Source: a virus
Lineage: Duplodnaviria; Caudoviricetes
Reading direction: 5' to 3' (one strand)
Virus record (IMG/VR): IMGVR_UViG_3300033073_001332
Span: 32,001-96,000 of that record
DNA length: 64,000 bases
Every line of letters starts with the position of its first letter. The first letter of the stretch is position 1. Of the stretch, positions 16,450 to 56,538 are shown piece by piece. The notes below the pieces were generated by a model. That model saw only the letters and a program-made list of their open reading frames with translations, had not been told where the DNA came from and did not search any database. The position numbers and the translations under genes are program-made.

Positions 16450-16451
16450 TT

Positions 16452-29842: not shown

Positions 29843-29845
29843 TGA

Positions 29846-31621: not shown

Positions 31622-31659
31622 TTTATTACTGATGAACCTATTATTTATATAAAAAAACT

Positions 31660-33483
31660 ATGGCAGAACAAAAATATACCGTTTGGCAAAGATTGAGTAA
31701 AGTTTTCGGACCGAATGCTACTTTGGACCAACAATCGCCTGTTTTCAAATTTGATAAAAAAGAGTTACTTAAAACAACAAGTAAAAGTGAATTTGAAAAA
31801 GAAAAATTACAAGCTCAACAAACCATGTATATTGGTAAACAATGGCAAAAAGTTGAGAATAATTTATATACCCAAGCCGTTTATTACGAACCAACAAGAA
31901 TGGCGTCGTATTACGACTACGAATCAATGGAATATACACCAGAAATTTCAGCAGCGTTAGATATCTATGCTGAAGAATCTACAACACCGGATAAAGACGG
32001 GTATATGTTACAAATATACTCTGAATCAAAACGAATCAAATCAATTTTAACAGAATTATTTAACAATCGTTTGGATATTAATACAAACCTACCAATGTGG
32101 ACAAGAAACACATGTAAGTTTGGTGATAACTTTGTTTATTTAAAATTAGACCCAGAAAAAGGTATTGTTGGATGTCAACAATTACCTAACATACAAATTG
32201 AAAGGTTAGAAAAAGGAATGAGATTCCAACCTGACAAATATTCTCAAGAAATGGAAAACGACGCGTTGAAGTTTACGTGGAAAGAGAAAAACATGGAATT
32301 TAACGTTTGGGAGATAGCTCACTTTAGAATATTAGGTGATGATAGAAAATTACCTTACGGAACATCTATGTTAGAAAAGGCTCGTCGTATTTGGAAACAA
32401 CTTTTATTATCTGAAGACGCGATGTTAATCTATCGTGTATCAAGAGCACCTGAAAGAAGAGTATTTAAAGTTTTTGTTGGTAACATGGACGATAAAGATG
32501 TTGACCCATACGTACAAAGAGTTGCTAGTAAATTTAAAAGAGACCAAATTTCTGACCCAGCAACAGGGAATGTAGATATGAGATATAATCAATTGGCAGT
32601 TGACCAAGATTACTTTATCCCTGTTAGAGATGCTGCAGCAACAAACCCAATAGAAACTCTACCAGGTGGAACAAACTTAGCTGAAATTGCAGATATAGAA
32701 TATATCCAAAAGAAATTAGTTACAGCTCTTAGAATACCTAAAGCATATTTAGGATTTGAAGAAGCTGTTGGTGATGGTAAAAACTTATCATTATTAGATA
32801 TTCGTTTTGCTAGAACAATTAATAGAATTCAAAAATCTATGATTGCAGAATTAAATAAAATTGCAATTGTTCATTTATTCTTATTAGGGTATGAAGACGA
32901 ATTAACAAACTTTACATTAGCATTAACTAACCCATCTAAACAATCTGACTTATTAGGTATCGAAGTGTGGAAAGAGAAAATACTTCTTTACAAAGATGCG
33001 GTTGCGGAAATACCAAACGCTTTAGCCCCTGTATCATCTTCATGGGCTAAAAAACATATTTTAGGATTCTCTGATGAAGAAATTAGATTAGACATCCAAC
33101 AACAAAGAGTTGAAAGAGCAGTGGCGGCTGAACTTGGTAAAACTGCAGAAGTTATTACTAACACAGGTTTATTTGATAACATAGATAAGTTATATGGTAA
33201 AAAAGATGGTGCGGCACCTGCGGAAGGTGGAGAATCACCTGAAGATGGAGGGGCTCCTGATATGGGAGGAGGAGTACCACCTATGGGCGGTGAAATGCCA
33301 TCAGAACCACCAGCGCCTGAGGCAGGAGGTGCAGAATTAGCACCTGAAAGTTTTCTAAAAGATGATTTAAATTTATTATTAGAAAAGGGTCTTTTTGGAA
33401 ATGATGATTTTATGAACTTAGGTAAAGGTAGAAATTCCTTAGTTGAAATAGATGAAAGATTGAAAGATTTATTAAATGGGTAA
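31660..33483 (+). CDS. gp20: Portal protein (T4 gp20-like)
   Basis: PEISAALDIYAEE, EDAMLIYRVSRAPERRVF, IETLPGG, LRIPKAYL. Confidence 0.95.
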   Translation: MAEQKYTVWQRLSKVFGPNATLDQQSPVFKFDKKELLKTTSKSEFEKEKLQAQQTMYIGKQWQKVENNLYTQAVYYEPTRMASYYDYESMEYTPEISAALDIYAEESTTPDKDGYMLQIYSESKRIKSILTELFNNRLDINTNLPMWTRNTCKFGDNFVYLKLDPEKGIVGCQQLPNIQIERLEKGMRFQPDKYSQEMENDALKFTWKEKNMEFNVWEIAHFRILGDDRKLPYGTSMLEKARRIWKQLLLSEDAMLIYRVSRAPERRVFKVFVGNMDDKDVDPYVQRVASKFKRDQISDPATGNVDMRYNQLAVDQDYFIPVRDAAATNPIETLPGGTNLAEIADIEYIQKKLVTALRIPKAYLGFEEAVGDGKNLSLLDIRFARTINRIQKSMIAELNKIAIVHLFLLGYEDELTNFTLALTNPSKQSDLLGIEVWKEKILLYKDAVAEIPNALAPVSSSWAKKHILGFSDEEIRLDIQQQRVERAVAAELGKTAEVITNTGLFDNIDKLYGKKDGAAPAEGGESPEDGGAPDMGGGVPPMGGEMPSEPPAPEAGGAELAPESFLKDDLNLLLEKGLFGNDDFMNLGKGRNSLVEIDERLKDLLNG

Positions 33484-33504
33484 TATTTATATAAAAAACT
33501 TGAA

Positions 33505-34236
33505 ATGAATAACTTTGGAACGATTAAAAGTAAATTAGAAAGGGCGAGTGTAGACTTGTTTGGTAAAAAAGAGTTTTCATCCTTTATGAATAACTTCAAA
33601 AGGGACATTTTAGAAAACAAAGATATAAGTGAAATTTATTTTATATATGACGACCTATCTTCAAAAAAAGGTATCGCAAAAGATATTGCAACTGACTATG
33701 TAAACGAATCGATTGAATATTGCCAAATCTTAATTGAAGGTAATAGAACAAAAATTAACCAAATCGATAAATGGATTTCTGATATTATTTCTGAAGTAGA
33801 TAACTCATATAATGTAATTGATACTTTAATTTACCAAAACTCTATAAAAAATTTAGAAAGCGTTTTAGAGTGTAAGAGAAAAGTTATCTCAACAATCATA
33901 TCTGAAGAAAACAAAAAACAAGTAAAAGAATCCATTCAACTACCTATTAAAACTATGGTTAAAGTTGCTGAAGATAATATTAAAAACCAACTTGAGTCTT
34001 TAACTGAATCCGAAAGAAAAGAAATAATCTCAATAGTATCCCTATCTAATGAAGAATTAAATAAGGAATTTAATGAGTTAAAAGAAAGTGTGATTTCAAA
34101 TTTAAAAACGTCTTTAAATGAATCTAAAGAAGATGATATGAAAAGTGTTATTGATAAAACAATATCAAAAATTTCAGATTCTAAATGCACACCATACGAC
34201 GTTTACAAACTTAGAAAGTTAAATTCAGGATTATGA
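33505..34236 (+). CDS. Hypothetical head-module protein
   Basis: 243 aa; follows portal; late motif at 33484. Confidence 0.7.
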   Translation: MNNFGTIKSKLERASVDLFGKKEFSSFMNNFKRDILENKDISEIYFIYDDLSSKKGIAKDIATDYVNESIEYCQILIEGNRTKINQIDKWISDIISEVDNSYNVIDTLIYQNSIKNLESVLECKRKVISTIISEENKKQVKESIQLPIKTMVKVAEDNIKNQLESLTESERKEIISIVSLSNEELNKEFNELKESVISNLKTSLNESKEDDMKSVIDKTISKISDSKCTPYDVYKLRKLNSGL

Positions 34237-34532
34237 GTTCAAAAAAATATTTCTTCGGGTGGGGTAATATTAAAAAAGGACTAACTGAATTAATAAGAAT
34301 ATATTCACACAAACCTTCATTTTTCTCCAAAAAAAGAATTGAGTCTGGAATAGCATTTATTATTGCGCAATGGGGGATGGTTTTTTATCTTTTAAAGAAA
34401 TACCCTGATTTATCTATGACAGATATAATTATGTGGGCATCCATAGAATTTGGGATATCAGGTTATATCCTACATCAAATCCAAAAAGAAAAAAAGGTTG
34501 AGGAGCCGACCGACAAAAATCAAGAAAGTTGA
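34233..34532 (+). CDS. Small two-helix membrane protein (holin-like candidate)
   Basis: Two hydrophobic segments with charged termini. Confidence 0.5.
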   Translation: MSSKKYFFGWGNIKKGLTELIRIYSHKPSFFSKKRIESGIAFIIAQWGMVFYLLKKYPDLSMTDIIMWASIEFGISGYILHQIQKEKKVEEPTDKNQES

Positions 34533-34711
34533 TTTCTTTTTTTCTGTAAGTAAATTGCCTTATTAACCTGACTTCTTTTTTTAACCGACTTCTTTGTAAA
34601 TTCTTGTCTATCACGCAATTGCTCTGATTGTTTTGTTTTATAAACTTTGAATTTATATTGTTTCAAAGCTTGTTCAATAGACGAGGCATTTTTTACTTTA
34701 ATAATAATCAT
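34520..34711 (-). CDS. rpsU: 30S ribosomal protein bS21
   Basis: MIIIKVK...IEQALKQYKFKV....LRDRQEFTKKSVKKR...KAIYLQ, Bacteroidota-type bS21 pattern. Confidence 0.92.
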   Translation of the reverse strand: MIIIKVKNASSIEQALKQYKFKVYKTKQSEQLRDRQEFTKKSVKKRSQVNKAIYLQKKRNQLS

Positions 34712-34730
34712 ATTTTTTTTACTTTATTAA

Positions 34731-34738
34731 TATAAATA
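34731..34738 (-). promoter_or_regulatory. TATTTATA putative late promoter of bS21
   Basis: Minus-strand motif 19 nt upstream of the bS21 ATG. Confidence 0.6.
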
Positions 34739-34816
34739 TACCAAAAAAATCCATTTTTGACAATTATCTTTTTTACAACTACATTTAATAAAAAATAAAC
34801 TTGTAAGTTATGATTA

Positions 34817-35260
34817 ATGAAAAAAGGAAAAACATCAAAATTAAACATTTTTGATGATGCGAAATGTTTCTACGGAACGGTAGATTCAAAAAATATGAAA
34901 TCAATTTATGTAGTATTACAGACTTGGATAGAACCCATAACCATAGACGAAAATTGGAACAGATTAGTTGGTGAAATAAAAAGACAAATCCAACACACAC
35001 TTTTAGAAGTTATAGATACCCACACATTTGAAAGAAAACAAATAGTAGATTTAGATTTAAGGACAAGTGGAATTCAAAAGAACAAAAAAAGTTTTATGAA
35101 TTTAGAAATTACACTATTTGTTCATAATAAAACATTAGATTTCAAATCCCACATTTTAAGAGATAAAATTAAAAAAATGTTATCATCAATATATGTCGAT
35201 GATTTGAAAAACAATAAACATTTTACACTAAGTAAGACAAAAGTTGTAGAATTCAAATAA
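34817..35260 (+). CDS. Hypothetical protein
   Basis: 147-aa ORF; near-consensus TTTG-N20-TACATTTA upstream (34756-34787). Confidence 0.7.
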   Translation: MKKGKTSKLNIFDDAKCFYGTVDSKNMKSIYVVLQTWIEPITIDENWNRLVGEIKRQIQHTLLEVIDTHTFERKQIVDLDLRTSGIQKNKKSFMNLEITLFVHNKTLDFKSHILRDKIKKMLSSIYVDDLKNNKHFTLSKTKVVEFK

Positions 35261-35287
35261 CCCTAATATTTATTCATAAAAGAACTT

Positions 35288-35998
35288 ATGAGAATTTTAG
35301 GACCTAGTGATACAGGTAAAGGAATATTAGTCGAGTGGGATGCGGGGATTATTAACCCTAACGAAGCACGTAACCAAAGCGTTATTCAAGAATCTTATGG
35401 ACAATTAGAACATTCAAAACCATTTGTGTTTTATGCAACTCTACAGAAGTGGGGTGTTCCAAATAGAAACGGAAGGGTTTACCCTGAAAAAATATTAAGA
35501 AGAGAAGCTGAAAAATACCAAGATACCATTAAACGTGGTATGGCTATTTCGGAACTAAACCACCCTGAATCATCACTGATAGATTTAGATAGAGTTTCTC
35601 ACCTTATTACTGATATGTGGTGGGAAGGTAATGTTTTGATGGGTAAAATTAAATTACTTACAACACCAGGTTTCCATGAGAGAGGGGTTGTTTCATCAAA
35701 AGGTGATGTTGCAGCTAACTTAATGAGACAAGGTGTTACTATGGGTGTTTCATCTCGTGGGGTTGGTTCCTTAGTTAAAAATGGAGATAAGAATGAAGTT
35801 CAAGATGATTTTGAATTAATATGCTTTGACCTTGTATCTTCACCATCAACACCAGGTGCATATCTTTATTTGAATAAAGAAGATAGACCTAAATATGAAG
35901 AGAAGCTTGCAGAACATGACGCAACTAACTTCTCAGGTGGTGGGATGGAAAAATCTGTTGACTTAATGAAAAGATTAACCGATTATTTAGGAAGATAA
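35288..35998 (+). CDS. gp21: Prohead core protease (T4 gp21-like)
   Basis: NRNGRVYP, ELNHP, VSH, GVSSRGVGS, FDLVSSPSTPGA. Confidence 0.95.
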   Translation: MRILGPSDTGKGILVEWDAGIINPNEARNQSVIQESYGQLEHSKPFVFYATLQKWGVPNRNGRVYPEKILRREAEKYQDTIKRGMAISELNHPESSLIDLDRVSHLITDMWWEGNVLMGKIKLLTTPGFHERGVVSSKGDVAANLMRQGVTMGVSSRGVGSLVKNGDKNEVQDDFELICFDLVSSPSTPGAYLYLNKEDRPKYEEKLAEHDATNFSGGGMEKSVDLMKRLTDYLGR

Positions 35999-36008
35999 AA
36001 ATTTATAT

Positions 36009-36218
36009 ATGGACGAAAAATATTTTGTAGCAAAAATCACAACTGATATGGTTGATGATAACACAGGAAAAATTAAAAAAATTAGAGAAGAAAAACTTGT
36101 AAGAGGATTTTCACCTACAGATGTGGAAGCTAAAGTCACTAAGGCTTACGAAAGTTACTCAATGGATTGGAGAATTACTGCAATTGTTGAGAGCAAAATT
36201 GATGAGGTGATTGAATAA
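36009..36218 (+). CDS. DUF4494-like small protein
   Basis: YFVAKI...GKIKKIREEKLV...DVEAKV...ITAIVESKIDEV. Confidence 0.6.
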   Translation: MDEKYFVAKITTDMVDDNTGKIKKIREEKLVRGFSPTDVEAKVTKAYESYSMDWRITAIVESKIDEVIE

Positions 36219-36239
36219 TTTTTTTTGTTATTTTCTAAG

Positions 36240-36263
36240 AGGGAACTTCGGTTCCCTTTTTTT
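36240..36263 (+). terminator. Intrinsic terminator
   Basis: agggaac-ttcg-gttccct followed by a T run. Confidence 0.88.
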
Positions 36264-36368
36264 ATGCCTTAATTTTTTTGGGATAAAAAACCTATTATAC
36301 GAATTTTTTTGAAAGAAGGATATATTTATTTAGTAAAAATAAACGCGTAACGCATTGCATACAAAAAA

Positions 36369-37904
36369 ATGAGTTTAGAAAAAAACGAAAATTTAGTAGA
36401 GAAAGCTTTATTACAAATGAAGTCTATCGAGGAAGCTATAAGCGAAAATGCAAAAGGAATACTTGCTTCTACAATGAAGGAAGAAATCAGTGAACTAGTA
36501 AAAGAGTCATTATTTGGCTCAAAATCTAAAACATCTTTACACGAACAAGAAGAAGAAGGTTCTGAGGTCGAAATCGACACAGACGACGAAACAAACGATG
36601 GTGTAGAGGTAGACGACGCAGAAATTGAAGTGTCCCCTGAAGGAGATGAAGACATCTCTATGATGATGGGCATTGAAGGACCTGCCGATAACGAAGACGA
36701 ATTACCTCCTCTCGATATGACAGGTGCAAAACCTGACGAAGTGTTGAAAGTATTTAAGGCTATGGGTGATGAAGATGGGATTATTGTTGTTAAAGACGGT
36801 AATAACATTCACTTAACTGATAATAACACAGACACTGAATATTTTATCGATTTAGGTGACGATTCAGATATATCTATGGATGAACCTATGGAAGATATGA
36901 ATGAGAGTGTAATTTATGAATTAGTCTTCGAAGAAAAAGAAGGTGACGAAGAAATGGATGAATCATATGAAGATATGGACGAATCTTATGACGAAATGGA
37001 TGAATCATATGAAGATATGGACGAATCTTATGACGAAATGGATGAATCATATGAAGATATGGATGAGACTATTTATGAGTTGGAAGTTAACGAAACTATG
37101 AAACCTAAAGGTATGGGATTCGGAAAAATGAAGAATGGTTTACCTAAATCATCAGTTAATAACAAAGGGTTTGATGAAGATATGAAAGACGGGACAAAAT
37201 CTGAGAAAAAAGGTAAAGGTCCTAAATTTTCTTTCGGTAAAATCAAACATGGAGTTACTGAATCTGAAATGGACGAAGAGTTCATGGAAGGATGGATGGA
37301 TGAAGAAATGGTTGACGATTACAAAATGGAATCTGATTACATGGAAGGTGACTACATGGAAGGTGACTACATGGAAGGTGACTACATGGAGTCTGAACAC
37401 ATGGATGACAATACAGGTGAAACTACAGAAGCTTCAAGAACTATGACTTATAAAAGAAGAGCAGAAAGAGACAGAGTTGCGGCACCAAGTCAATTAAGAA
37501 AAGAATCATACAACAAAGAATTAAGTTTATTAAAAGAAAAGAACGAAGAGTACAAAAAGGCTTTAGACTTTTTCAGAAATAAATTAAATGAAGTTGCAGT
37601 ATTCAATTCTAATTTGGCATATTCTACAAGATTGTTCACTGAACACTCAACAACAAAACAAGAAAAAATAAACATACTTAGAAGATTTGATAACGTTGAG
37701 TCTATCAAAGAATCTAAATCTCTTTACAAGACAATTAAATCTGAACTTGATGGTAACAAATCAACTGACGTTGTTACGGAATCCATCCAAAGACAAGTTG
37801 TTAAAACACCTTCAAATGGTTCAGCATCTAATTTGATTGAAAGTAAAACTTATGAAAATCCTCAATTCTTAAGAATGAGAGATTTGATGTCAAAAATTAA
37901 ATAA
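36369..37904 (+). CDS. Prohead scaffold/core protein (T4 gp22 positional equivalent)
   Basis: Very acidic, coiled-coil C-terminus, located between protease and major capsid gene. Confidence 0.8.
   Translation: MSLEKNENLVEKALLQMKSIEEAISENAKGILASTMKEEISELVKESLFGSKSKTSLHEQEEEGSEVEIDTDDETNDGVEVDDAEIEVSPEGDEDISMMMGIEGPADNEDELPPLDMTGAKPDEVLKVFKAMGDEDGIIVVKDGNNIHLTDNNTDTEYFIDLGDDSDISMDEPMEDMNESVIYELVFEEKEGDEEMDESYEDMDESYDEMDESYEDMDESYDEMDESYEDMDETIYELEVNETMKPKGMGFGKMKNGLPKSSVNNKGFDEDMKDGTKSEKKGKGPKFSFGKIKHGVTESEMDEEFMEGWMDEEMVDDYKMESDYMEGDYMEGDYMEGDYMESEHMDDNTGETTEASRTMTYKRRAERDRVAAPSQLRKESYNKELSLLKEKNEEYKKALDFFRNKLNEVAVFNSNLAYSTRLFTEHSTTKQEKINILRRFDNVESIKESKSLYKTIKSELDGNKSTDVVTESIQRQVVKTPSNGSASNLIESKTYENPQFLRMRDLMSKIK
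36951..37063 (+). repeat. 42-bp exact tandem repeat (2.7 copies; EMDESYEDMDESYD)
   Basis: gaaatggatgaatcatatgaagatatggacgaatcttatgac at 36951 and 36993, partial at 37035. Confidence 0.9.
37338..37390 (+). repeat. 15-bp exact tandem repeat (3.5 copies; YMEGD)
   Basis: tacatggaaggtgac x3 followed by tacatgga. Confidence 0.9.
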
Positions 37905-37937
37905 ACAAATAAATAAACTCAAATTAAAAAAAATAAA

Positions 37938-39776
37938 ATGGGAGCATTATTAGAATCAGGTCTTGTTGGTAACATTGGTTTGAAACACCTTAAAGTTATC
38001 AAAGAAGATACAATTAACAAATGGGATAAATTAGGATTCCTAGATGGTCTTAAAGGACACATTAAAGAGAACATGGCTCAATTATATGAGAACCAAGCAT
38101 CTCACCTTATTAACGAAGCAGCGTCTACAGATAGCTCAGGTTCTTTCGAAACTGTAGTTTTCCCTATCGTAAGACGTGTATTCTCTAAATTGTTGGCTAA
38201 TGATTTAGTATCTGTACAGGCTATGAACTTACCAATCGGTAAATTGTTCTACTTTGTACCTAAGATTCAAAATTACAACACTGCAACTGCATATGACAAT
38301 CCTCACTTTGCACCAATCGGAGCACAAAACGGACCAACACCTGCAGAATCACAAGCGGCATATCCAGCATCATCTAAAAACCTTTATGATAGATTTTATG
38401 AAGGTACTGAGCCGGATTTAGACCCAGCAGGTTTGTGGGATTATTCTAAAGGTGCTTACACAGCTATCACTAAAGCGGCTGTTACTTATGTATGGTCAAG
38501 TGGACAATTAGTTGAAGGTGCTTACACTACAACTAATGGTGGTACTGTTAACGGAGCTACTACAGGTGGTCCTGTTCACAGAAAAGTAATTATCGCTCTT
38601 TCTGGTTTCACATCAGGTGGTGCTGGTAAATTAATCGGACCTGATGGTCAAGTTATGGATAACGAAGCATTCTTATCTGACTTACAAGTTAAGGCTTATG
38701 CTAACACTGTAGCTCAAGCGGCGTTCTCAGGTTTAGGTGTAAATACACCATTACTTTTCAGAGTTGTTACTCAAAAATATGGTAAAGGTATTGTTCAATA
38801 TGGTACTCAAACGACTACTACATGGCCAGGTACTGGTAACGGTGGTTCTTATGATAACCTTTGTGACGCAGCTGGTATCATCTACTTAGAAGTTGATACT
38901 CAAGTTCCTGCAGCAATCGGAGCAGCATCTTTAGATGGTTACTCAGGATTTACTTTAGGTGCTTCTGCAACACAAACTGACGGACAATTCTACTGTACTT
39001 ACAGAATCTACCAAGAATTGGAATTCGAAGACAGAATTGGTGAAGTTTCTTTTGACCTTGAGTCAGTTACTGTATCTGTTACAGAAAGAAAACTAAGAGC
39101 ACAATGGTCTCCTGAATTAGCTCAAGACGTTGCGGCGTTCCATAACATCGATGCTGAGGCTGAGTTAACTGCATTGTTATCTGAGCAAGTAGCTGCTGAG
39201 ATTGACCGTGAAATTTTACGTGACTTACGTAAAGGAGCGGCTTGGAATTTACGTTGGGATTACAACGGATGGAGAAGAATCAACGCAACTACTGCGTATA
39301 CACAAAAAGACTGGAACCAAACATTGATTACTGCTATCAACCAATTGTCAGCACAAATCCACAAGTCAACACTTCGTGGTGGAGCTAACTGGATTGTTGT
39401 ATCTTCTGAGGTTTCTGCGATTTTTGATGATTTAGAATACTTCCACGTATCTAACGCGTCTCCTGAGCAAGACCAATACAACATGGGTATTGAAAGAGTT
39501 GGTACATTAGCTGGTCGTTACCAAGTTTACCGTGACCCTTATTTCCCACCAAACACAGTATTGTTGGGTCACAAAGGTACGTCATTGTTAGACACTGGTT
39601 ACGTTTACGCACCATATGTTCCTCTACAATTAACACCTACAATGTATAACCCATTCAACTTTACACCAATCAAAGGTATCATGACAAGATACGCTAAGAA
39701 AATGGTTAACAACCGTTTCTATGGTAAAATCACAGTTGATGGAGTTAGAACATTTGACTTAAGAGAATTGAGATAA
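37938..39776 (+). CDS. gp23: Major capsid protein (T4 gp23-like)
   Basis: VSVQAMNLPIG, RKLRAQWSPELAQD, DAEAELTALLSEQVAAEIDREI, YAPYVPL, GIMTRY. Confidence 0.96.
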   Translation: MGALLESGLVGNIGLKHLKVIKEDTINKWDKLGFLDGLKGHIKENMAQLYENQASHLINEAASTDSSGSFETVVFPIVRRVFSKLLANDLVSVQAMNLPIGKLFYFVPKIQNYNTATAYDNPHFAPIGAQNGPTPAESQAAYPASSKNLYDRFYEGTEPDLDPAGLWDYSKGAYTAITKAAVTYVWSSGQLVEGAYTTTNGGTVNGATTGGPVHRKVIIALSGFTSGGAGKLIGPDGQVMDNEAFLSDLQVKAYANTVAQAAFSGLGVNTPLLFRVVTQKYGKGIVQYGTQTTTTWPGTGNGGSYDNLCDAAGIIYLEVDTQVPAAIGAASLDGYSGFTLGASATQTDGQFYCTYRIYQELEFEDRIGEVSFDLESVTVSVTERKLRAQWSPELAQDVAAFHNIDAEAELTALLSEQVAAEIDREILRDLRKGAAWNLRWDYNGWRRINATTAYTQKDWNQTLITAINQLSAQIHKSTLRGGANWIVVSSEVSAIFDDLEYFHVSNASPEQDQYNMGIERVGTLAGRYQVYRDPYFPPNTVLLGHKGTSLLDTGYVYAPYVPLQLTPTMYNPFNFTPIKGIMTRYAKKMVNNRFYGKITVDGVRTFDLRELR

Positions 39777-41249: not shown

Positions 41250-42728
41250 TTATTTTTTATTAACGATTTGGAACTGAAGTTCCCTTTTATAAGTATCTAC
41301 ATTTCTATCTGAAACGACCTTTAAATCAATGAAATATTCATTTGGTATTTTGTCTGTGGTATCAAATATAAAATAGTATGAATCAGGTGTTTTATTTATC
41401 CTTGTCCAATCTTGAACTTGAACTTCGGTATTACCACCTTCTTTAACGTATACTCTATAATACGCCTCAATATTATTTAATACTTTATTTGGTGAATATG
41501 CTTGTTTTATTGTGACGTCAACTTTTCTTATGTCGGTATTTAAAATCTGTTCATTTTGTTTTATACCCCCAAAAGAAAACCCGTATATCTTAGGTGTGTT
41601 TGTTGTTGAACCGATAGTATAATTTCCATTTTTAGCTAACATTACAAATTCATTTTGTACGTTTGCAATAGATGTTGAACCAATTGATAATCCTTTCCAT
41701 AAATCATAATACAAACATGGAATGGTTGTTCCCGTCAATCCACTAACAACCACTTTATATACCCCTTTTGTGACCTGACACGTTGTTAAACCTGTGAAGC
41801 CTTGTATTGGGGTTTCATTACTATCTAAAATGTCTACAGTGGGGTTAGAATTCAAATTAACCGCATTACCATTCTCATAAACATATAGGTATAAGTTATT
41901 TACGTTTCCAGCATAAAAAGAATTTCTATCATCATCGATAAAATCATTATAGTTTGTTTCTAAAAATGGTTCATAGAATGTTTGTGTATGTGGGGAAAAG
42001 AACCCAACCGAATAATTTTCAGTTAGACCTGAAATATTCTCAACTGACGGAAGATAAGAAATAATCCATCCTGCTGGTGCCGGTGTATTTCCTGTTAATA
42101 TTGAATTAATTTCGTTAGTCATATCAAACTCAATATCTTCATTACCGAATTCAAAATGTTGTGTGTCGATAACCGTAAGTGCTGAGTAATTTAATCCTGT
42201 TAAACCTGTTAAGGAATTTGTGTTGTTGTAGATACCAGGAGTTGACCAACCTGATATAGTTGTTGCTTGAAACCAATTCGATGGTCTATTAGAAAATGAC
42301 CTATCATTGAAGTTTGTTACACCAAAGTCATAATAGTCATACCCAACACCACTATCCCAACTTTGAGTGGTTCCTGTTGAACCTGAATATCTTGGTATTC
42401 TTAATAATTGTAAATCAAAAGATGTTGCTCTTCTTCTACCTTGACTTGTTTTATCATTCAATAATTCGTTATCAAAAAATGAAGTGTTTGTCATCCTTAA
42501 AGTATGTGTTGGGTTAACACTGCAACCCGTTACAATTACTTTATTATTATAGTTTGCAGTTAACCCCGATAAATCAATATTAAAAATATATCTACTAAAT
42601 CCTGTAGGGTTTGCAGAATTACTTAAGTTACCATAAAATAACTCAACAATTGGGTTTCTACCCGTATTAGTATATGAGTTAAATAATATTGTATTTGACT
42701 TACTGAAATAAGACCTATAAATTGACAT
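41250..42728 (-). CDS. Putative virion structural protein rich in [ST]G-x-[ST]
   Basis: 492 aa, beta-rich N/T/S/G composition; late motif at 42741-42748. Confidence 0.65.
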   Translation of the reverse strand: MSIYRSYFSKSNTILFNSYTNTGRNPIVELFYGNLSNSANPTGFSRYIFNIDLSGLTANYNNKVIVTGCSVNPTHTLRMTNTSFFDNELLNDKTSQGRRRATSFDLQLLRIPRYSGSTGTTQSWDSGVGYDYYDFGVTNFNDRSFSNRPSNWFQATTISGWSTPGIYNNTNSLTGLTGLNYSALTVIDTQHFEFGNEDIEFDMTNEINSILTGNTPAPAGWIISYLPSVENISGLTENYSVGFFSPHTQTFYEPFLETNYNDFIDDDRNSFYAGNVNNLYLYVYENGNAVNLNSNPTVDILDSNETPIQGFTGLTTCQVTKGVYKVVVSGLTGTTIPCLYYDLWKGLSIGSTSIANVQNEFVMLAKNGNYTIGSTTNTPKIYGFSFGGIKQNEQILNTDIRKVDVTIKQAYSPNKVLNNIEAYYRVYVKEGGNTEVQVQDWTRINKTPDSYYFIFDTTDKIPNEYFIDLKVVSDRNVDTYKRELQFQIVNKK

Positions 42729-42749: not shown

Positions 42750-44318
42750 TTAGTTAAGTCGAATATTACTATTCAAAACTTTTTGATAAGCATTTAACAT
42801 ATTTGATAATAAATCATCGACCGTAGTTCCGTCAACCGTAGTTGGTGTTGGAGGTAATCCTGGATATGGGTGAACGTGAGTTATACAAAATTTAACAATT
42901 AGTTGGAGTAGTTCTAATAATTCCTCACCTCTAACCATTGATGATGTATTTGGTTCTATGTCATTTGTTATTCTATCTTGGTCGATACCATAGATTGAGT
43001 CATCAAAATTAATTCTTGTTTTACCAGGAATTTCACTTTCATTTGATAACAAATACAATTTAGTCCCACCTAAAAGTGCTACGGTGTTTTCAGAAAGGTT
43101 TGATGTTGATGGTGCGTATGCAGAACTTTGTAATTCAAATGGTATGTTTGGTGAAAGTTTACTATCTAACACTAACCCATAACCCGGTATTTTCTGAGAT
43201 GAGGATATTTTGACCATTGATGAAAGTTTAATCATATTAGCCGATGAGGTTAATTGATTTGTAACTGGTTTTGTAATTAGGTCAAATATTTTTTTGGAGG
43301 GTCTATAATAGAATGGGTATTGTTGATTTTTTTGTACGGTAGGTGAAAGTAATGCTGACGACGGGTCAGTTATAATACTTCTTAATCTTTGATTAATTTG
43401 TGTTGAAAGGTCATCTAAATTTAAACCTAATGGGAAATTAATCATTCTGATAAGTTGGACACCGTCAGTTGTTCCTGTTAAATCTAAATTTGTTGTAACA
43501 TTAAAATTACCTGTTAATGTTTTTTCAGCTTGCCTTTCAGTACGTAATTGGTAAATGTATAAAACCCCTGTGAATGCTGAAAATTGGTTTTCAGGATTTA
43601 AAACATCATATTCAACAAGGTATTTTATAGGTTTTTTATTCTGTACTAACTTTGTCCTACTTTCAGCATTACCAAAAGTAATATTTGTGTCATATTTTGA
43701 AAGTTGTAAAAAGGCTCTTTTACTATCTGCCTCAGGGATTTGTCCTGTTGAGAAATTTTTGTGTTTTCCTGCTCTTATTAAAACTTCTTTTTCTTTTACA
43801 ATAACGTCTGCAGAATCCCTACCATTTAATGAAATATCTACAGGTTCAGGAAATACCCCTTTATTTTTATTATTCTTGTAAGTGCCGTCTTGATTCTTGA
43901 TAGGAGGAATCTTTTTTGTGGAGTTCCCATAACCTGAATTCAATCTTGTTTGTGACGAAGATGAATCTTCAAATTTTATAGTTGTTGGAGATGAGAAGGT
44001 ACTAATCATGTAGAATTTATTTCTACCTGTTTTTGTATTTGTATTATAATAAAACAACATCACCTTTTCTCCTTTTTTTGGTACTTGATTTACAAAGTAA
44101 GGTAGAAGAGGTAGATAAATAAATGGGTCAACATCAGACCAAGGACCATTTTTATTTGGGTCTGTTGAATTTGCATCAAATTTTGAATTTGAATTTTGTA
44201 ACGCGGTGATATTCATAGTTTCAGGTTCAACCCTAACTCTACCCAACATAAGTGGGTCATCACTATCAATACAGGTCCCAAAAAATATTTGTTGTCCGTC
44301 TATATATTTTTCAGCCAT
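42750..44318 (-). CDS. Baseplate hub/central spike (gp5-like)
   Basis: N-terminal OB-fold signature DDPLMLGRVRV...PLLP...PKKGEKV; C-terminal HVHPYPG (HxH). Confidence 0.7.
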   Translation of the reverse strand: MAEKYIDGQQIFFGTCIDSDDPLMLGRVRVEPETMNITALQNSNSKFDANSTDPNKNGPWSDVDPFIYLPLLPYFVNQVPKKGEKVMLFYYNTNTKTGRNKFYMISTFSSPTTIKFEDSSSSQTRLNSGYGNSTKKIPPIKNQDGTYKNNKNKGVFPEPVDISLNGRDSADVIVKEKEVLIRAGKHKNFSTGQIPEADSKRAFLQLSKYDTNITFGNAESRTKLVQNKKPIKYLVEYDVLNPENQFSAFTGVLYIYQLRTERQAEKTLTGNFNVTTNLDLTGTTDGVQLIRMINFPLGLNLDDLSTQINQRLRSIITDPSSALLSPTVQKNQQYPFYYRPSKKIFDLITKPVTNQLTSSANMIKLSSMVKISSSQKIPGYGLVLDSKLSPNIPFELQSSAYAPSTSNLSENTVALLGGTKLYLLSNESEIPGKTRINFDDSIYGIDQDRITNDIEPNTSSMVRGEELLELLQLIVKFCITHVHPYPGLPPTPTTVDGTTVDDLLSNMLNAYQKVLNSNIRLN

Positions 44319-46894: not shown

Positions 46895-47647
46895 TTATTG
46901 ATTATGTATTTTTCTTAAAGTATCTAAATATAATGTTTTATATTTTTTTAGATATGACCTTATTTCTTTTGTGTTAAGGTTAGTCATTTCTCTTAAGGTT
47001 AGTAATACAATATTTTTATTGAATTTATTATTGTCGTTACCTATAAAAATATTCCCATAATCCTCAAAAAGTTCAATTAAAGCGTACCCTAACTTACTTT
47101 CATTATCTTGTAGGTCTGTATCGTTTACATATTTTTTCAAATCGTTTAAAAAAACGTCTATAATCTTTTCAGCATCTATTTTTTCAAACTCTAAATAATA
47201 GACCATATCCGGTCTATTTTCTAATGTACCGGATATGTCCTCATATGAAATTTTTCTATTAGTTTCTTTTTGGTCTTTCAGAATTTGACCCATCAAGTAA
47301 TTTTTACAGATGGTACCAAAATAAGAATATGCTTTTTTATTTTTGGCAGGTTTAAACTTATCGACTTTAGTCATTAGGAAAGAATGGGTATCACTATGAA
47401 TATCATTATAATTCATATCCTTCCTATAAAGTTTATACCTTCTTATGATTGATTCAATCATCTTATCAAGAGGTTCTCTTAAAAATTGGTTATATATAAC
47501 TTCTTTTTCTTGTTTGGTGTCGGCTATTATATAAGCCTTTACCGCCTCTTCTTCACGTACATCGAAGTAATTATTTTTTTTTACTTTCTTTTCCGTCTTA
47601 TTCTCTTCGTAAGTAACTTCTAAAACAGTTCCTGACGATACAAACAT
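46895..47647 (-). CDS. Late-transcription sigma factor (T4 gp55-like)
   Basis: KVDKFKPAKNKKAYSYFGTICKNYLMGQI resembles sigma region 2 of gp55-type factors. Confidence 0.7.
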   Translation of the reverse strand: MFVSSGTVLEVTYEENKTEKKVKKNNYFDVREEEAVKAYIIADTKQEKEVIYNQFLREPLDKMIESIIRRYKLYRKDMNYNDIHSDTHSFLMTKVDKFKPAKNKKAYSYFGTICKNYLMGQILKDQKETNRKISYEDISGTLENRPDMVYYLEFEKIDAEKIIDVFLNDLKKYVNDTDLQDNESKLGYALIELFEDYGNIFIGNDNNKFNKNIVLLTLREMTNLNTKEIRSYLKKYKTLYLDTLRKIHNQ

Positions 47648-48453
47648 TATATTTCCTGTGGTTCATATTTTATATTTCTATCTGATGTGAAAAAATGTTC
47701 TTTTTTCGCGGCTTCAATCCAAAAAGTAACCTCATCATCTGAAATTTTATTCTGACCATTTTTGTAATTCCAGAATATTGAACCTTCTCTTAGGTTCATG
47801 TGTTTGTAACCTATTCTAGGAATAGTCATGATTTGTGCTGAGTTATAAGTCAATCTTAATAAAAATTCATATACAAACGTAAGTTTGAATGATGGTTTAA
47901 ATCCTCCATTATCTTGGTATGTTGATTTTTTCACAACCATTCCACTTGTTTGGAAGTTTTGATAATTCATCAAAACGTCATTAGTTAAATAACCAATTTC
48001 AGAATTTAAACTGGCTGCAAATGTTGCTTCATTTGTAAATCCAACAAACATACCTTTTTCGTCAGTATCGACAACTAATGGTAAGAATGCATCTACTTCA
48101 GGATAAGCGTTAATAAATCTTTTTACATTTTTAAACCAAATTGTAGAGTACTCATCATCAAATTCTAAAACACTAATCCATTCCTCTTTTGAGTTTTCAA
48201 CACCAAGATTGACTTGTGAACAAAAATCAACTTTACCTTTATTTTCCACAAAGTTCATAGTAAGACCACTATAATCGAATGCCTCTAACAAAGTTTTTAG
48301 ACCATCTTCATCTGAATGTACCACAATAACTTCTGAAGGTTTTGTATCCTGAATTTGTAAGGATTTAATTGCTCTTTCATAAAACAAATCGAAATCTTTT
48401 TGTTTCGATGAGTTAATCGGGATAATTACCGATACGTTTAAATTATTTTCCAT
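47647..48453 (-). CDS. GT2-family glycosyltransferase
   Basis: VSVIIP, NLGV, LEFDDEY, EFLLR. Confidence 0.8.
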   Translation of the reverse strand: MENNLNVSVIIPINSSKQKDFDLFYERAIKSLQIQDTKPSEVIVVHSDEDGLKTLLEAFDYSGLTMNFVENKGKVDFCSQVNLGVENSKEEWISVLEFDDEYSTIWFKNVKRFINAYPEVDAFLPLVVDTDEKGMFVGFTNEATFAASLNSEIGYLTNDVLMNYQNFQTSGMVVKKSTYQDNGGFKPSFKLTFVYEFLLRLTYNSAQIMTIPRIGYKHMNLREGSIFWNYKNGQNKISDDEVTFWIEAAKKEHFFTSDRNIKYEPQEI

Positions 48454-48457
48454 AATA

Positions 48458-49525
48458 TTATCTTGTTTCTTCTGTTACGTTTAGTTTATTTAGTTGTTCT
48501 TTAAATACCTCTTTTCGTGTTGTAAAATATTCATTGAATAATTCTAAAACTGAAGATTCAAATTTAGATTTATCTGAGTAAGATGATGACGTTTTTTCCA
48601 TCCCTTCGTATAAACTTTCAGAAATATTATCCTCTAACCAATTTTGAATGAAATTTGCAATAACATCTACAATATCATTAAATTGATTTAACCAAATACC
48701 ATTTTCTTCTGTTATCCATTCTGGTACCATGTTAGGAATTTTACCTAAAACAGGAGTACCGACTAACATAGATTCTAATGGGTATGTACCAAATGATGAT
48801 TCATTATCAACCCACACACTCAAAAATGATTCTTTTAAGAATTTAGAAAAATCATTCATGTTAATACCTCTCATATCTCTAAAGGTAATCCATCTATATT
48901 GTGGATACTTTAGATAAAAAGTTTTAATAATTTTAGCTGTATCTCTTTGGTCGCGAGTATGAATAGAAATAATTGGTTTTGAAGGTTTATCTTTTTTAGA
49001 AAAAACTTCAGAAATGTAAGGTGTTAATACATCAACACTAACATTTTTCATTACTTCTGAAATATATTTTTTCTGATTTTCAGACGTTGTAATACATTTG
49101 AAAAATCCAAGTTGTGTCCATGTAACACCAGGTGCTAATGTTTCTAACATATGGTCATATGCTTGACACAATACTATTTTACCACATGGTAAGTTTTTAA
49201 TTTGTTCCATAACATGACCATAAAGTTCAGGTAATACGATTATATCTTCAGGTGAAATTGCTAAATTTTGACCATCGATACATTGATGAGGTAATTCCAT
49301 ATAACTTTCGTTTAACCAAGATGAAACACCTTCATACTCTTTTGTTTCGTGGATAATGATTGGGTTATAACCTGAATTTTTCAAGGTTAATGCCATATCA
49401 TAAATGTATTTTATGGATGCTTTTGGGTTACCTTTAGTATCCTGTACTAAAAAATAAATTCTTGCAGTTTTTTCTTCTAAGTTTTTAATCGAACCTTCAA
49501 TTTTTGTAATTTTATCTAATTCCAT
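48458..49525 (-). CDS. GT4-like glycosyltransferase
   Basis: DIIVLPE; SSFGTYPLESMLVGTPV. Confidence 0.75.
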   Translation of the reverse strand: MELDKITKIEGSIKNLEEKTARIYFLVQDTKGNPKASIKYIYDMALTLKNSGYNPIIIHETKEYEGVSSWLNESYMELPHQCIDGQNLAISPEDIIVLPELYGHVMEQIKNLPCGKIVLCQAYDHMLETLAPGVTWTQLGFFKCITTSENQKKYISEVMKNVSVDVLTPYISEVFSKKDKPSKPIISIHTRDQRDTAKIIKTFYLKYPQYRWITFRDMRGINMNDFSKFLKESFLSVWVDNESSFGTYPLESMLVGTPVLGKIPNMVPEWITEENGIWLNQFNDIVDVIANFIQNWLEDNISESLYEGMEKTSSSYSDKSKFESSVLELFNEYFTTRKEVFKEQLNKLNVTEETR

Positions 49526-49528
49526 TTT

Positions 49529-49810
49529 TTATAGTTTTTTGATTATTTTATTTAATAATAGAGTATTAAAAGAAATTTTGAATGGTATTGATAAATCTTT
49601 TGCGGAGTGCATACCAAGTGATTCATCAACACCTTCTCTTTCAGTTAATACAACATCCAATAATAACTTAAATGTTTCATATCTAGTAACACTTATTTGT
49701 TCGTTTTCAGTTTCCCCCGATGGGACAACAATTTTAGATTTTAATAGACTTACTTGAGTCTCTAACTCATCTACATCTATGTAGTAATTTTCATTTAAAA
49801 AAGGAATCAT
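49529..49810 (-). CDS. Hypothetical protein
   Basis: 93-aa ORF in operon. Confidence 0.65.
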   Translation of the reverse strand: MIPFLNENYYIDVDELETQVSLLKSKIVVPSGETENEQISVTRYETFKLLLDVVLTEREGVDESLGMHSAKDLSIPFKISFNTLLLNKIIKKL

Positions 49811-50460
49811 AATATAATATCATTTATTAATTTATCTAACTCACCCAATTGTGTTATTTTGTAATTATGATTCATAGTATCATTATATGGTGTAACATAT
49901 TGAACTACAATTTTTTCAGATGGATGTTCGTTTATTAGGTTTGGGTTTGCTGTTAATAAAATATCAACACTATCCCACATATCGTTTATAGTTGCATTAG
50001 AGTAAAACTTTATATTTTCAATTAAACAACCAAATTTAGAAAGGAAAAATAATGTAGCTGGTTTTGACCTACCTATCTCGTCTGATATAATATAAATCTC
50101 AAACTTTTCTCTGTTAGATATGTAAAACTCATTCAACTCATTAAATGAATAAGTTTCTGTTGAACCAGCGTGTCCAAACAATTGCATTGGGAAATCTTCA
50201 AACATGAAGTCATATAGTTCGTCATCGGATTTGAATGTAAAATGGTTTTTTAAATCAAAACTATTAATTGGTTCTATAATTTCATATTTAAAATCCTCCA
50301 CTTTTTCCTCCAAACTGGTATTACCTGAAATGTCAATTTTGAAAGTTTGGTTTGAGTTTTCTGATTCGTAATTTTCAATCATATGTTTTTCATATAATTG
50401 TTTAAATTTACCAAACGTATCCCTTAAGACCCCATTAACTTCAATCCCTATTCTCTTCAT
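49807..50460 (-). CDS. HAD/5'(3')-deoxyribonucleotidase-like protein with degenerate catalytic motif
   Basis: RIGIEVNGVLRD in place of RIxIDxDGVLxD; TPYN near the C-terminus. Confidence 0.55.
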   Translation of the reverse strand: MKRIGIEVNGVLRDTFGKFKQLYEKHMIENYESENSNQTFKIDISGNTSLEEKVEDFKYEIIEPINSFDLKNHFTFKSDDELYDFMFEDFPMQLFGHAGSTETYSFNELNEFYISNREKFEIYIISDEIGRSKPATLFFLSKFGCLIENIKFYSNATINDMWDSVDILLTANPNLINEHPSEKIVVQYVTPYNDTMNHNYKITQLGELDKLINDIIL

Positions 50461-51178
50461 CGTATTTTTGTAAAATTTTACTAATTAATGGATTTCTTAC
50501 GTTTTTAGCATTTCTGAAATCATATATACCAACATCAGGAATATTATTAAACCTTTGTAAGGCATCATATAATCCTGATTGTTTTTTATCTTTATATCTG
50601 TCAGTTTGCTCTAAGTCTCCTGATATGAAGAATTTACTATTGAATCCGATTCTTGTCAATAGTAATTTCATTTGGTTTGGAGTTGCGTTTTGACCCTCCT
50701 CAAATATTAATATCGAGTTGTCAATATTCATACCCCTCATATAAGCCAATGCAAATACCTCAATAATTTCAGCTTCTTTTAATTTTTCTCTAGCCTCTTT
50801 ACCTATAATTTTATTTAATAGATAATAAGACGGGAAAATATATGGGTCTAATTTTTCTTCTAAATTCCCTGGTAAAGAACCAAGTTTTTCTTCAGCTTCA
50901 ACTGCTGGTCTAACAATAATTAATTTTTCATAAGCATTATTAGGGTCCATTAATAAATCAACCGCAGCCTTCATTGAAATATAACTTTTACCAACACCTG
51001 CGGGACCCGAACATATTGTTATCTGATTAGAAACTAAAGTATCGTAATACTCTTTTTGATTATCAGATAAAAACTTGCTTTTTTGTTTTCTTTTAATTAC
51101 CGAATTAATAAAATCTTTTCTCGATATTGTCTTCGGTATTACCGGCTCCTCCGATTGTGCTACTTTCCTTCTTGTCAT
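50441..51178 (-). CDS. phoH: PhoH-family ATPase
   Basis: GPAGVGKS, RPAVEA, LGSLPG, YMRG, EEGQN, SGDLEQTD. Confidence 0.93.
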   Translation of the reverse strand: MTRRKVAQSEEPVIPKTISRKDFINSVIKRKQKSKFLSDNQKEYYDTLVSNQITICSGPAGVGKSYISMKAAVDLLMDPNNAYEKLIIVRPAVEAEEKLGSLPGNLEEKLDPYIFPSYYLLNKIIGKEAREKLKEAEIIEVFALAYMRGMNIDNSILIFEEGQNATPNQMKLLLTRIGFNSKFFISGDLEQTDRYKDKKQSGLYDALQRFNNIPDVGIYDFRNAKNVRNPLISKILQKYDEENRD

Positions 51179-51186
51179 TTAATGAA

Positions 51187-52164
51187 TTATTTATTTTTAT
51201 AGAAATCCAACCAATATTCAATCATTTCATCTAACATAGATTCAAACGTATATTTAGGTTCCCATCCTAAGTTATATTTTAGTTTTGAAGAATCACCTTT
51301 TAAGTCATGTAACTCTTCAGGTCTAAAATGTTTTTCATCTATTATAATATAATCATAATAGTTTAAACCTAATTTTGAAAATGTGTATTCACATAAATCT
51401 TTTACTGAGTGTGATATTCCAGTTGCACATACATAATCATCTGGTGTGTCTGTTTGTAACATTAACCACATGGCTTCAACATAATCTTTTGCGTGTCCCC
51501 AATCTCTTGTTGCATCTAAATTACCGATATGTAATTTATCTTGTAATCCCAAACTAATTCTAACCGCCGCCTTTACAACCTTATTGGTTACGAAATTTGT
51601 TCCTCGTCTTGGTGATTCATGGTTAAATAAAATACCATTCCATATTTTCATTCCATATGAGTTACGATAGTTTCTACAAATGTTATATGAAAAAACTTTA
51701 GCACATCCATATGGTGATACAGGATTCATTGGGGTGGATTCTCTTTGAAATCCATCCTCATCAATTGTATTACCAAACATCTCAGAAGATGATGCTTGAT
51801 ATATTTTAATGTCTTTATTTAGTAACTTAACCGCTTCTAATAAATTTAAAGTTCCTAAACCTGTAACATTTGCTGTGTAAATAGGTTGGTCAAATGAAAT
51901 TCTAACATGGGATTGTGCTGCTAAATTATAAATTTCAATAGGTTCAATTTCTTGTATTACTCGAGTTAATGATGATAAATCTGTTAAATCTGCGTAATGC
52001 AATTTTAATTTATCAAAAACAGAATCAATTCTACTTGTTTGATTTTCAGACACTGAGTTTCTTTTCAAAGTTCCATGAACTTCATAACCTTTTTCTAAAA
52101 GGAATTCTGCGAGATATGAACCATCTTGTCCATTAATCCCTGTTATAAGTGCTACTTTCTTCAT
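51187..52164 (-). CDS. gmd: GDP-mannose 4,6-dehydratase
   Basis: ALITGINGQDGSYLAE, NLAAQSHV, YQASSSE, SPYGCAK, LFNHESPRRG. Confidence 0.96.
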   Translation of the reverse strand: MKKVALITGINGQDGSYLAEFLLEKGYEVHGTLKRNSVSENQTSRIDSVFDKLKLHYADLTDLSSLTRVIQEIEPIEIYNLAAQSHVRISFDQPIYTANVTGLGTLNLLEAVKLLNKDIKIYQASSSEMFGNTIDEDGFQRESTPMNPVSPYGCAKVFSYNICRNYRNSYGMKIWNGILFNHESPRRGTNFVTNKVVKAAVRISLGLQDKLHIGNLDATRDWGHAKDYVEAMWLMLQTDTPDDYVCATGISHSVKDLCEYTFSKLGLNYYDYIIIDEKHFRPEELHDLKGDSSKLKYNLGWEPKYTFESMLDEMIEYWLDFYKNK

Positions 52165-53309: not shown

Positions 53310-54210
53310 AATACGTTTCGTAAACTATTTTTATACCATCACTAAGTGGTGTGAATTTAAAATCCGGAAATAAACCCTTGAACTTATCTATTGATACATC
53401 TTTTCTGAACTGACCATTAGGTTTTTCTTTGTCCCATAAAATCTTTATGTTTTTATTATCTGTAACATCAAGTGCGATTTCTGCCATTTGTCTAATTGAA
53501 AGATTTTCTTCCGTAGCTACATTAAAACTATCTGTAATATTATTTTCAATAGTTTGTTTTATTATTTCTGCAAAATCACCAGCATACATAAATTGTCTTA
53601 ATGGTGTGCCATCACCATATAATGTAATATTATCTAATCCATTTTTCTTTGATTCATGTATCTTTTTAATCAAAGATGTTAAAAAATGACTTTTATTCTC
53701 ATCGTCTTTATCTTCAATACCATAAAGATTACATGGTATTAAATACTGGTAGTCTAATTTATATTGTTGGTTATAAGCATCAATCTGTGCTCCCATTGAA
53801 CGTTTTGAATACCCATATGAAAAATTTGTTATGGTTGGGGGTCCTTCGTGTAACATCGACTCATCCATTGGGTAATGTTTAGCAACATCAGGGTAAATAC
53901 AAGTACTTAAAATACCTATAAATTTTTTAACTTTAAAAACCCTCGAATATTCCACCATTAAAGTGTTCATCAATACATTTTGAGTAAAGTATTCTGCGGG
54001 GTGGTTGAGGTTATCGATTATACCTCCAACTCTTGCTGCTAGATGTACAACAACTTCTGGTTTATGTTTTAAAAACATTCTTTTTACACCATCTTCACTA
54101 GTTAAATCATAATCTTTTGATGATATATAGATAGCGTCAGGTAATATCTTTTTAAGATACTTACCAACTAATCCTGACCCACCCGTCACTAATATTTTTT
54201 TATTTTCCAT
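53293..54210 (-). CDS. fcl: GDP-L-fucose/GDP-L-colitose synthase (Fcl/ColC)
   Basis: TGGSGLVG, HLAARVGGI, STCIYP, YGYSKR, PCNLYG, GTPLRQF. Confidence 0.88.
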   Translation of the reverse strand: MENKKILVTGGSGLVGKYLKKILPDAIYISSKDYDLTSEDGVKRMFLKHKPEVVVHLAARVGGIIDNLNHPAEYFTQNVLMNTLMVEYSRVFKVKKFIGILSTCIYPDVAKHYPMDESMLHEGPPTITNFSYGYSKRSMGAQIDAYNQQYKLDYQYLIPCNLYGIEDKDDENKSHFLTSLIKKIHESKKNGLDNITLYGDGTPLRQFMYAGDFAEIIKQTIENNITDSFNVATEENLSIRQMAEIALDVTDNKNIKILWDKEKPNGQFRKDVSIDKFKGLFPDFKFTPLSDGIKIVYETYYDKVS

Positions 54211-54212
54211 TG

Positions 54213-56534: not shown

Positions 56535-56538
56535 TTTT

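Follow-up and report, generated by a model that had tools for sequence, protein, structure and literature searches.

Does a short peptide motif, scattered through the proteins of a phage, mark residues that carry sugars on the finished particle? The question is raised by a stretch of 64,000 nucleotides (positions 32,001 to 96,000 of the IMG/VR record IMGVR_UViG_3300033073_001332), hereafter the window, to which all coordinates refer unless stated otherwise. It comes from an uncultured, low-GC phage with a complete genome of 219,553 bp and 196 open reading frames (ORFs), referred to as G000. An earlier note on this DNA had singled out one protein of 492 amino acids (aa), in which the SG and TG dipeptides are mostly followed by x-[ST], and had proposed that [ST]G.[ST] is a glycosylation sequon of the virion proteins. 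The corresponding gene lies in the structural module, between the genes for a major capsid protein of the gp23 type and for a hub-like protein of 522 aa; the plus-strand reading of the same interval contains stops throughout and was rejected.

41250-42728, minus strand: 492-aa protein of the virion module with 12 [ST]G.[ST] sites, analyzed by shuffles, a pattern scan, a structure model and its homologues

The [ST]G.[ST] motif and its distribution

Recounting the dipeptides of the 492-aa protein gave exactly the tally of the note, with the same tetrapeptides: 12 of 15 are followed by x-[ST]. Shuffles of the whole protein lead to an expectation of 1.34 motifs (z 9.45, p<5e-4), and the binomial probability of 12/15, conditional on the [ST]G dipeptides, is 7e-7. 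When the shuffles are confined to windows of 15 or 30 residues the expectation is still just 1.6-1.8, i.e. the enrichment survives correction for composition, global as well as local. Six alternative arrangements of one glycine with two hydroxyl residues reach at most z 3.3 and were counted as unenriched; together with the window shuffles, these permuted arrangements rule out local patches rich in S, T and G. N-x-[ST] is at chance (9 vs 10.4). Since the codons vary among the instances, a motif at the DNA level is also ruled out.

It could be objected that the pattern was chosen by eye, and that the collagen-like and SprB-repeat proteins described below inflate its apparent ubiquity. However, when 55,296 three-position patterns are scanned without bias, [ST]G.[ST] comes first for the 492-aa protein (Poisson 2e-8); besides surviving the shuffles and the permutations, the enrichment is replicated in orthologues of independent genomes, with the background proteome at expectation. 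These controls effectively refute chance, compositional bias or post-hoc choice of the pattern as an explanation, to which we give next to no credence: the observation is confirmed as real. The sites begin at residues 42, 54, 67, 115, 118, 159, 174, 212, 233, 312, 329 and 332, the first corresponding to 42594-42605 and the last to 41724-41735. Three pairs of sites form mini-runs of two triplets (SGSTGTT, TGLTGLN and SGLTGTT).

At the scale of the complete genome the whole excess is held by 19 of the 196 ORFs; the other 177 show 48 motifs for 46.3 expected. The enriched set comprises the tail sheath, collagen-like and SprB-repeat fibres, a PKD protein, proteins of the carbohydrate-binding module (CBM)/immunoglobulin (Ig) type, and several large unassigned proteins encoded outside the window. 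Ten globular virion proteins contain 172 [ST]G, and x-[ST] comes next in 100 of them; in the 177 other ORFs it does so in 48 of 360. The enrichment in virion proteins announced by the note thus holds, and it is confined to the outer virion, with an overall excess of five- to tenfold over chance on variable loops of about ten unrelated outer proteins of the particle. Its further claim that the whole particle would be glycosylated was overstated: the capsid core, the portal-like and the hub proteins are at chance. In the tail sheath 12 of 13 sites lie in the insertion, not in the conserved core. A domain shared by the enriched proteins is ruled out, as they display no homology except for the SprB repeats; because of this, and because the contexts of the motif differ, its origin is convergent.

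The ten globular proteins also define the motif more precisely. With threonine as last residue ([ST]G.T) the count is 82 for 11.5 expected (z 21); threonine is thus preferred at position +3 (82/100) but not at position 0 (46/100). [ST]A.T is a weaker variant (20 vs 6.2, z 5.6), and N, D or P at +1 are at chance. The residue preceding the motif is hydrophobic in 57% of the sites, compared with 34% in the background. In its refined form the motif reads hydrophobic-[ST]-[G>A]-x-T, and it occupies variable positions.

Individual proteins of the window illustrate this distribution:

17806-18624, plus strand: 272-aa protein with no family assignment; 8 motifs vs 1.9 expected (SGVT three times, TGIT, TGTT and others)
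12809-13816, plus strand: 335-aa LamG/ConA-like protein; 5 motifs, weak when taken alone (p ~0.04)
37938-39776, plus strand: gp23-type major capsid protein with a large insertion (Pfam Gp23, 1.7e-73), which places the phage; SGFT at residues 222 and 336

The other instances listed earlier were found again: the approximately 8 in 17833-18624 (8 counted in the ORF 17806-18624), the 5 in the first half of the protein at 12809, all within its N-terminal 135 residues, the TGTT of the spike (42750-44318) and the SGDT at 27260. The two SGFT of the capsid insertion are present as counted, but they are not significant (2 vs 1.1). The ORF carrying SGDT (27260-27442, plus strand) is a putative Thr-rich frame of 61 aa just upstream of 27458-28780.

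The giant repeat protein, presented in the note as largely a tandem array of the motif, is a separate case.

1-6252, plus strand: 3' part of the giant protein (whole gene at genome positions 28662-38252), 3,196 aa with a collagen-like array

The description is literally correct, but it does not count as independent evidence: 467 of its 480 motifs lie inside a single uninterrupted, proline-free Gly-X-Y run of 2,799 residues (G-[ST]-[SN]), with glycine autocorrelation of 2.8-fold at lags 3, 6, 9 and 12, so that the tetrapeptide is a by-product of the Gly-X-Y period. In the collagen-like fibre the motif is likewise tied to the Gly-X-Y repeat. The giant array, if triple-helical, would be about 0.8 micrometre long; related phages carry two to five such giants (G002, G049).

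Fold, site placement and motif density across genomes

The 492-aa protein belongs to a large uncharacterized family (>2,860 homologue hits), with no family in Pfam, PHROG or NCBIfam and no match among GenBank phages. Its structure was modelled from a deep alignment (predicted local distance difference test, pLDDT, 88.8). In the model, residues 1-261 form a CBM-like beta-jelly-roll, and residues 266-370 and 380-492 two Ig/macroglobulin-like beta-sandwiches. The first domain aligns with a chondroitin-sulfate-binding module (8wab_B; VIA-align Z 15.5, root-mean-square deviation 2.9, 170 residues aligned) and with an alginate-binding module (7vbo_A; Z 13.6); through it the protein itself may bind host polysaccharides. 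Foldseek against the PDB returned only generic Ig tandems, and a BFVD search only uncharacterized homologues.

The sites are distributed unevenly: nine fall within the CBM-like domain and three within the first Ig domain, and the conserved C-terminal one has none. In the alignment of homologues the columns bearing them are variable, with 61% identity vs 81% for the rest (p 2e-7). Sites are gained and lost, often alternating with S-A-x-T.

The partition between an enriched set and a background proteome repeats in the relatives G002, G003, G004 and G037. In 17 genomes the motif counts of the 492-aa family covary with those of p716, an unrelated family (Spearman 0.84; p 3e-5 without correction for phylogeny). 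This covariation indicates that something at the level of the genome or the lineage sets the density of the motif, which is a graded, genome-level trait.

The reading that we favour, tentatively and at somewhat less than an even chance, is that of a short linear motif recognized by a trans-acting modifying enzyme, most probably an O-glycosyltransferase. In one sub-lineage of giant freshwater Bacteroidota phages, selection would have multiplied hydrophobic-[ST]-[G>A]-x-T on loops that are exposed and evolve fast, in outer virion proteins (the sheath with its insertion domains, proteins of the baseplate and the fibres, and decoration proteins of the CBM/Ig type, the 492-aa protein among them). 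The enzyme would read the motif in the host cytoplasm, before or during assembly, and add a sugar either to the Ser/Thr that adjoins Gly or to the threonine at +3, giving the particle a glycan coat. The enrichment, its specific arrangement, its restriction to virion proteins, its variable positions, its convergent origin and its covariation between genomes are observed; that the sites are modified, that a glycan is what they carry and which enzyme acts are what we infer.

The main rival does without an enzyme. The tetrapeptide would be a structural or physicochemical loop motif, forming tight turns or capping strands and helices on beta-rich surfaces, and it would have expanded in one lineage by drift or by selection, e.g. 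for better solubility or hydration, or for more rigid loops, in fresh water. We judge this a little less likely than the enzymatic reading, and several observations speak for it. In homologues A, N or D can take the place of glycine at +1, which is how turn positions behave; 8 of the 12 glycines at +1 lie, in the model, in coil or at the boundaries of secondary-structure elements; homologues rich in the motif are richer in S, T and G overall; and none of the transferases compared below tracks the motif. Some sites keep their position down to about 30% identity (columns 77, 147, 178 and 300 of p716; columns 141 and 1196 of the sheath), in genomes lacking a TibC-type gene as well, which fits a structural role too.

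Other observations speak against a loop motif. The secondary-structure contexts are heterogeneous: in the model, sites 115 and 329 fit an Aah-type acceptor (PMC3835316), i.e. strand-loop-strand where the acceptor opens the loop, 42 and 312 precede strands, 54 and 212 cap helices (both N- and C-caps occur), and others are in long loops. Such mixed contexts argue against a single structural role. N and D form turns equally well, yet [ST]N.[ST] and [ST]D.[ST] are unenriched, and simple turn propensity predicts neither the preference for threonine at +3 nor the restriction to the outer virion. The family tree contains a well-supported clade of 39 members with 0-1 copies, almost all of them poor, whose sister clade is rich; the same fold exists throughout this clade, hence it does not require the motif. 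Finally, in the cultured Flavobacterium phage immuto the spikes, the fibres and the sheath, although rich in S, T and G, are at chance, and the complete genome G027 displays no enrichment at all (98 vs 94.9).

Candidate enzymes and the glycan toolkit

An O-glycosyltransferase is favoured as the type of enzyme because the phage possesses an exceptionally large glycan toolkit, of roughly 30 genes overall. Its components in the window are the following:

13860-14792, plus strand: stand-alone glycosyltransferase (GT) of family GT9 (PF01075; generic GT9), probably the gene called TibC-like in the note
8176-12759, minus strand: 1,527-aa multi-enzyme protein with GT25-like, GT1/GT4, Aah/TibC-type O-heptosyltransferase and FkbM methyltransferase domains
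47647-63977, minus strand: glycan locus, with a GT2-like gene (47647), a GT1-like gene (48458), PhoH, then genes for GDP-Man dehydratase, DegT aminotransferase, epimerase, NeuB, SIS isomerase, SDR, TIM-barrel, class-IV aminotransferase, CMP-cytidylyltransferase, MptE/Maf-like protein (60326-61054), STELLO-like GT and carbamoyltransferase

The locus thus holds GDP-sugar and CMP-nonulosonate pathways, its SIS gene being GmhA-like, and it extends beyond the window with a GT11, a GT2, a GT2+GT4 fusion (GT545) and a conserved RfaG-like gene (GT404). The genes at 55698-61054 (minus strand), i.e. NeuB, SIS, SDR, TIM-barrel, class-IV aminotransferase, CMP-cytidylyltransferase and MptE/Maf-like, make up a pathway of the nonulosonic-acid type.

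We analyzed the co-occurrence of the motif with TibC, the stand-alone GT9 (GT9_310), Maf/NeuB, the GT2/GT1 pair, GT404 and GT545. None of them tracks it cleanly, and this, like the disparities detailed below, weighs against the reading that we favour; the enzyme could even be encoded by the host. All these cross-genome correlations are moreover confounded by shared ancestry, and the three positions of the motif do not covary as a unit better than a control pattern does.

The stand-alone GT9 scores 27.2 bits on TIGR04414 (Aah/TibC), far below the membership cutoff of 200, and matches the lipopolysaccharide heptosyltransferases RfaC, RfaF and RfaQ equally weakly; like the 492-aa protein, it has no match among GenBank phages. 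It has no counterpart in 21 related contigs, the syntenic and motif-rich G002 among them, and is present in the weakly enriched G044/45 and G046. On these grounds it was rejected as the motif enzyme. It is flanked by three paralogous LamG/ConA-like proteins (12809, 14818 and 16550; region 12809-17548, plus strand), whose number and order vary between related phages, as for a variable receptor-binding cassette.

The Aah/TibC-type domain of the multi-enzyme protein is of another kind. It occupies residues 950-1291 (8887-9912), scores 293.9 bits on TIGR04414 over model positions 30-374 of 374, and is about 40% identical to the plasmid-borne Aah. The 1Fe-0S iron finger of TibC is formed by C339, C342, C358 and C370 (PMC4358343); four invariant cysteines with spacing 3/16/12 occur in six phage domains and in two plasmid Aah enzymes. 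By sequence, the domain is a genuine member of the bacterial autotransporter heptosyltransferase (BAHT) family, with a predicted activity. Its gene adjoins the collagen-like Gly-X-Y giant and not an autotransporter gene, whereas the plasmid homologue does adjoin an AIDA-I gene.

That this enzyme modifies both the collagen-like array (S-G-x-S) and the globular motif, as the note had supposed of a TibC-like transferase, has several points in its favour. The domain is genuine, the giant array beside it consists of this very tetrapeptide, the glycan locus includes a GmhA-like SIS gene, and S-G is over-represented in an AIDA-I-type substrate. Aah accepts Ser/Thr at the start of loops without a strict consensus (PMC3835316); such a loose rule is compatible with the motif, not specific to it. 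A first comparison found TibC in the rich G000, G002, G006 and G037 and not in five complete genomes of the poor clade, and the strongest enrichments (G000, G002, G037, G058, G043 and G051) are all in TibC-positive genomes.

The comparison of genomes with and without the gene nevertheless contradicts it. In the complete genomes G022, G023 and G029, which lack any TibC/GT9-like gene even at E<=10, the p716-like, p735-like and sheath proteins are still strongly enriched. Conversely the TibC-positive G046, G049 and G050, from other lineages, have no enrichment beyond their collagen arrays, and 8 of 12 further TibC-positive relatives have just 1-3 motifs in the 492-aa homologue; in the TibC-positive G042, G052, G053 and G060 there is 1, with 2-6 in p716. 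The natural AIDA-I-type substrate is dominated by S-G-G with a 19-residue periodicity, its [ST]G.[ST] reaching z 2.8 only. The TibC-type domain, neither necessary (G022, G023, G029) nor sufficient (G042, G046, G049, G050), was thus rejected, and we regard a heptosyltransferase acting on both kinds of substrate as improbable. Across genomes TibC appears to track the collagen-like arrays rather than the globular motif. A 94.8-kb record classed as a provirus by IMG/VR, IMGVR_UViG_3300027728_001610 (L226, L266), contains two TibC-type domains about 70 kb apart.

The remaining candidates fared no better. The NeuB/Maf module has no homologue in any of ten related genomes compared; private to G000, it looks like a recently acquired, strain-specific glycan module, and was discarded as the source of the enzyme. 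The GT2/GT1 pair was set aside since it is universal in the phage group, conserved in rich and poor clades alike, and the DUF6734 protein since it is absent from relatives. GT404 and GT545 give the best correlation at the level of whole proteomes, with at least one ORF at p<1e-4 in 8/8 positive vs 0/5 negative genomes. Both are present in G042, where the 492-aa homologue has 1 motif and p716 has 2. GT404 (L354:5782-6996, minus strand, i.e. 69782-70996 in window coordinates) is a virus-specific RfaG-like GT-B protein, 82% identical in G002. Because it adjoins dUTPase/dCTP-deaminase-like and PolB-exonuclease-like genes it may glycosylate DNA instead of protein (Pyle 2024, as cited in PMC12619734). 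Present in a motif-poor genome and possibly DNA-directed, the two were also rejected. In G029 the GT404 homologue is found as two halves about 1.2 kb apart in one open frame of 831 aa (G029:C1:200334-202802), suggesting that an element, for instance an intein, was inserted in frame.

The motif could also serve another modification (phosphorylation, acylation, ADP-ribosylation) or the docking of an assembly factor, a chaperone or a decoration protein. Its statistics would be the same as those of a sequon, and hydroxyl-Gly-x-hydroxyl would suit kinases too; that no glycosyltransferase tracks the sites is as expected. Against this, the window yielded no kinase or other candidate modifying enzyme, no other enzymatic investment beside the structural genes comes near the glycan toolkit in size, and docking motifs are rarely present at 10-17 copies per protein. 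We consider such a function rather improbable.

Related systems and meaning for phage surfaces

Glycosylation sequons include N-x-[ST] for PglB and HMW1C, and D-[ST]-[ALVIMT] in the O-glycosylation of Bacteroidota. Like these, the phage motif is short, has a hydroxyl residue at a fixed offset, occurs on many unrelated surface proteins, and is gained and lost on variable loops. It differs from them in sequence; in addition, the Bacteroidota system is periplasmic, whereas phage particles assemble in the cytoplasm. A second resemblance is with Bacillus BclA (G-x-T repeats) and the collagen-like fibrils of Mimivirus, whose Thr/Ser-rich Gly-X-Y arrays carry O-glycans: T-G-x-T corresponds to the junction of two G-x-T triplets. 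Most sites here are nevertheless isolated tetrapeptides in globular domains, not triple-helical repeats.

With the BAHT systems TibC-TibA and Aah-AIDA-I (PMC4358343, PMC3835316) the phage has in common a true member of the enzyme family, whose predicted site of action is the cytoplasm and whose targets would be many Ser/Thr in a surface protein that is beta-rich or repetitive, and the frequency of S-G in the natural AIDA-I-type substrate. The substrates differ, a Gly-X-Y array being the neighbour in the phage and the beta-helix of an autotransporter the BAHT substrate, as do the patterns: S-G-G with its 19-residue period on one side, and on the other S/T-G-x-T, which does not co-occur with the enzyme. 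Virions of mycobacteriophages are O-glycosylated by phage-encoded glycosyltransferases (Freeman et al. 2023, PMC10527164, as cited in PMC12619734), a precedent for a phage glycan coat; according to that account the glycans are on C-terminal tails of capsid and tail-tube subunits, while here the motif, known from sequence alone, is an internal tetrapeptide on loops of about ten outer proteins, with an unenriched capsid core. The Moraphages and other large freshwater phages of Flavobacteriia possess several core glycosyltransferase families whose target is open (PMC12619734). They too are large aquatic phages with predicted Bacteroidota hosts; PMC12619734 describes no motif or sequon.

A host of this phylum is likewise suggested for the present phage, since SprB repeats occur in its fibres. 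Its major capsid protein has about 42% identity only to those of Microcystis phage Mel-JY01 and of the Flavobacterium 'immuto' phages.

The motif is real, specific and unusual, and its interpretation as a glycosylation site is plausible, and reasonable given the very large glycan toolkit of the phage. In its fullest form, which is possible but on the doubtful side, the interpretation would imply a general, sequon-directed O-glycosylation taking place in the cytoplasm in this sub-lineage, with dozens of sites on sheath, baseplate and fibre proteins, their number per genome being tuned as a unit, by an enzyme of a family new as a protein glycosyltransferase. The results on TibC bear on a related practice: as the phage enzyme of this type appears tied to collagen-like fibres, assignments of glycosyltransferases to substrates by adjacency need to be checked by co-occurrence.

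To our knowledge, mycobacteriophages are so far the only phages whose particles have been shown to carry glycosylated proteins, and there only on C-terminal tails. If glycosylation is the function of the motif, phage surfaces would follow a new rule, with a defined sequon at internal positions of many virion proteins, the first of its kind in a phage, providing the particle with a "glycan shield". It would bear on host recognition, on the evasion of defences and grazers, and on the stability of particles in fresh water, and it would allow glycosylated phages to be predicted from metagenomes by sequence only.

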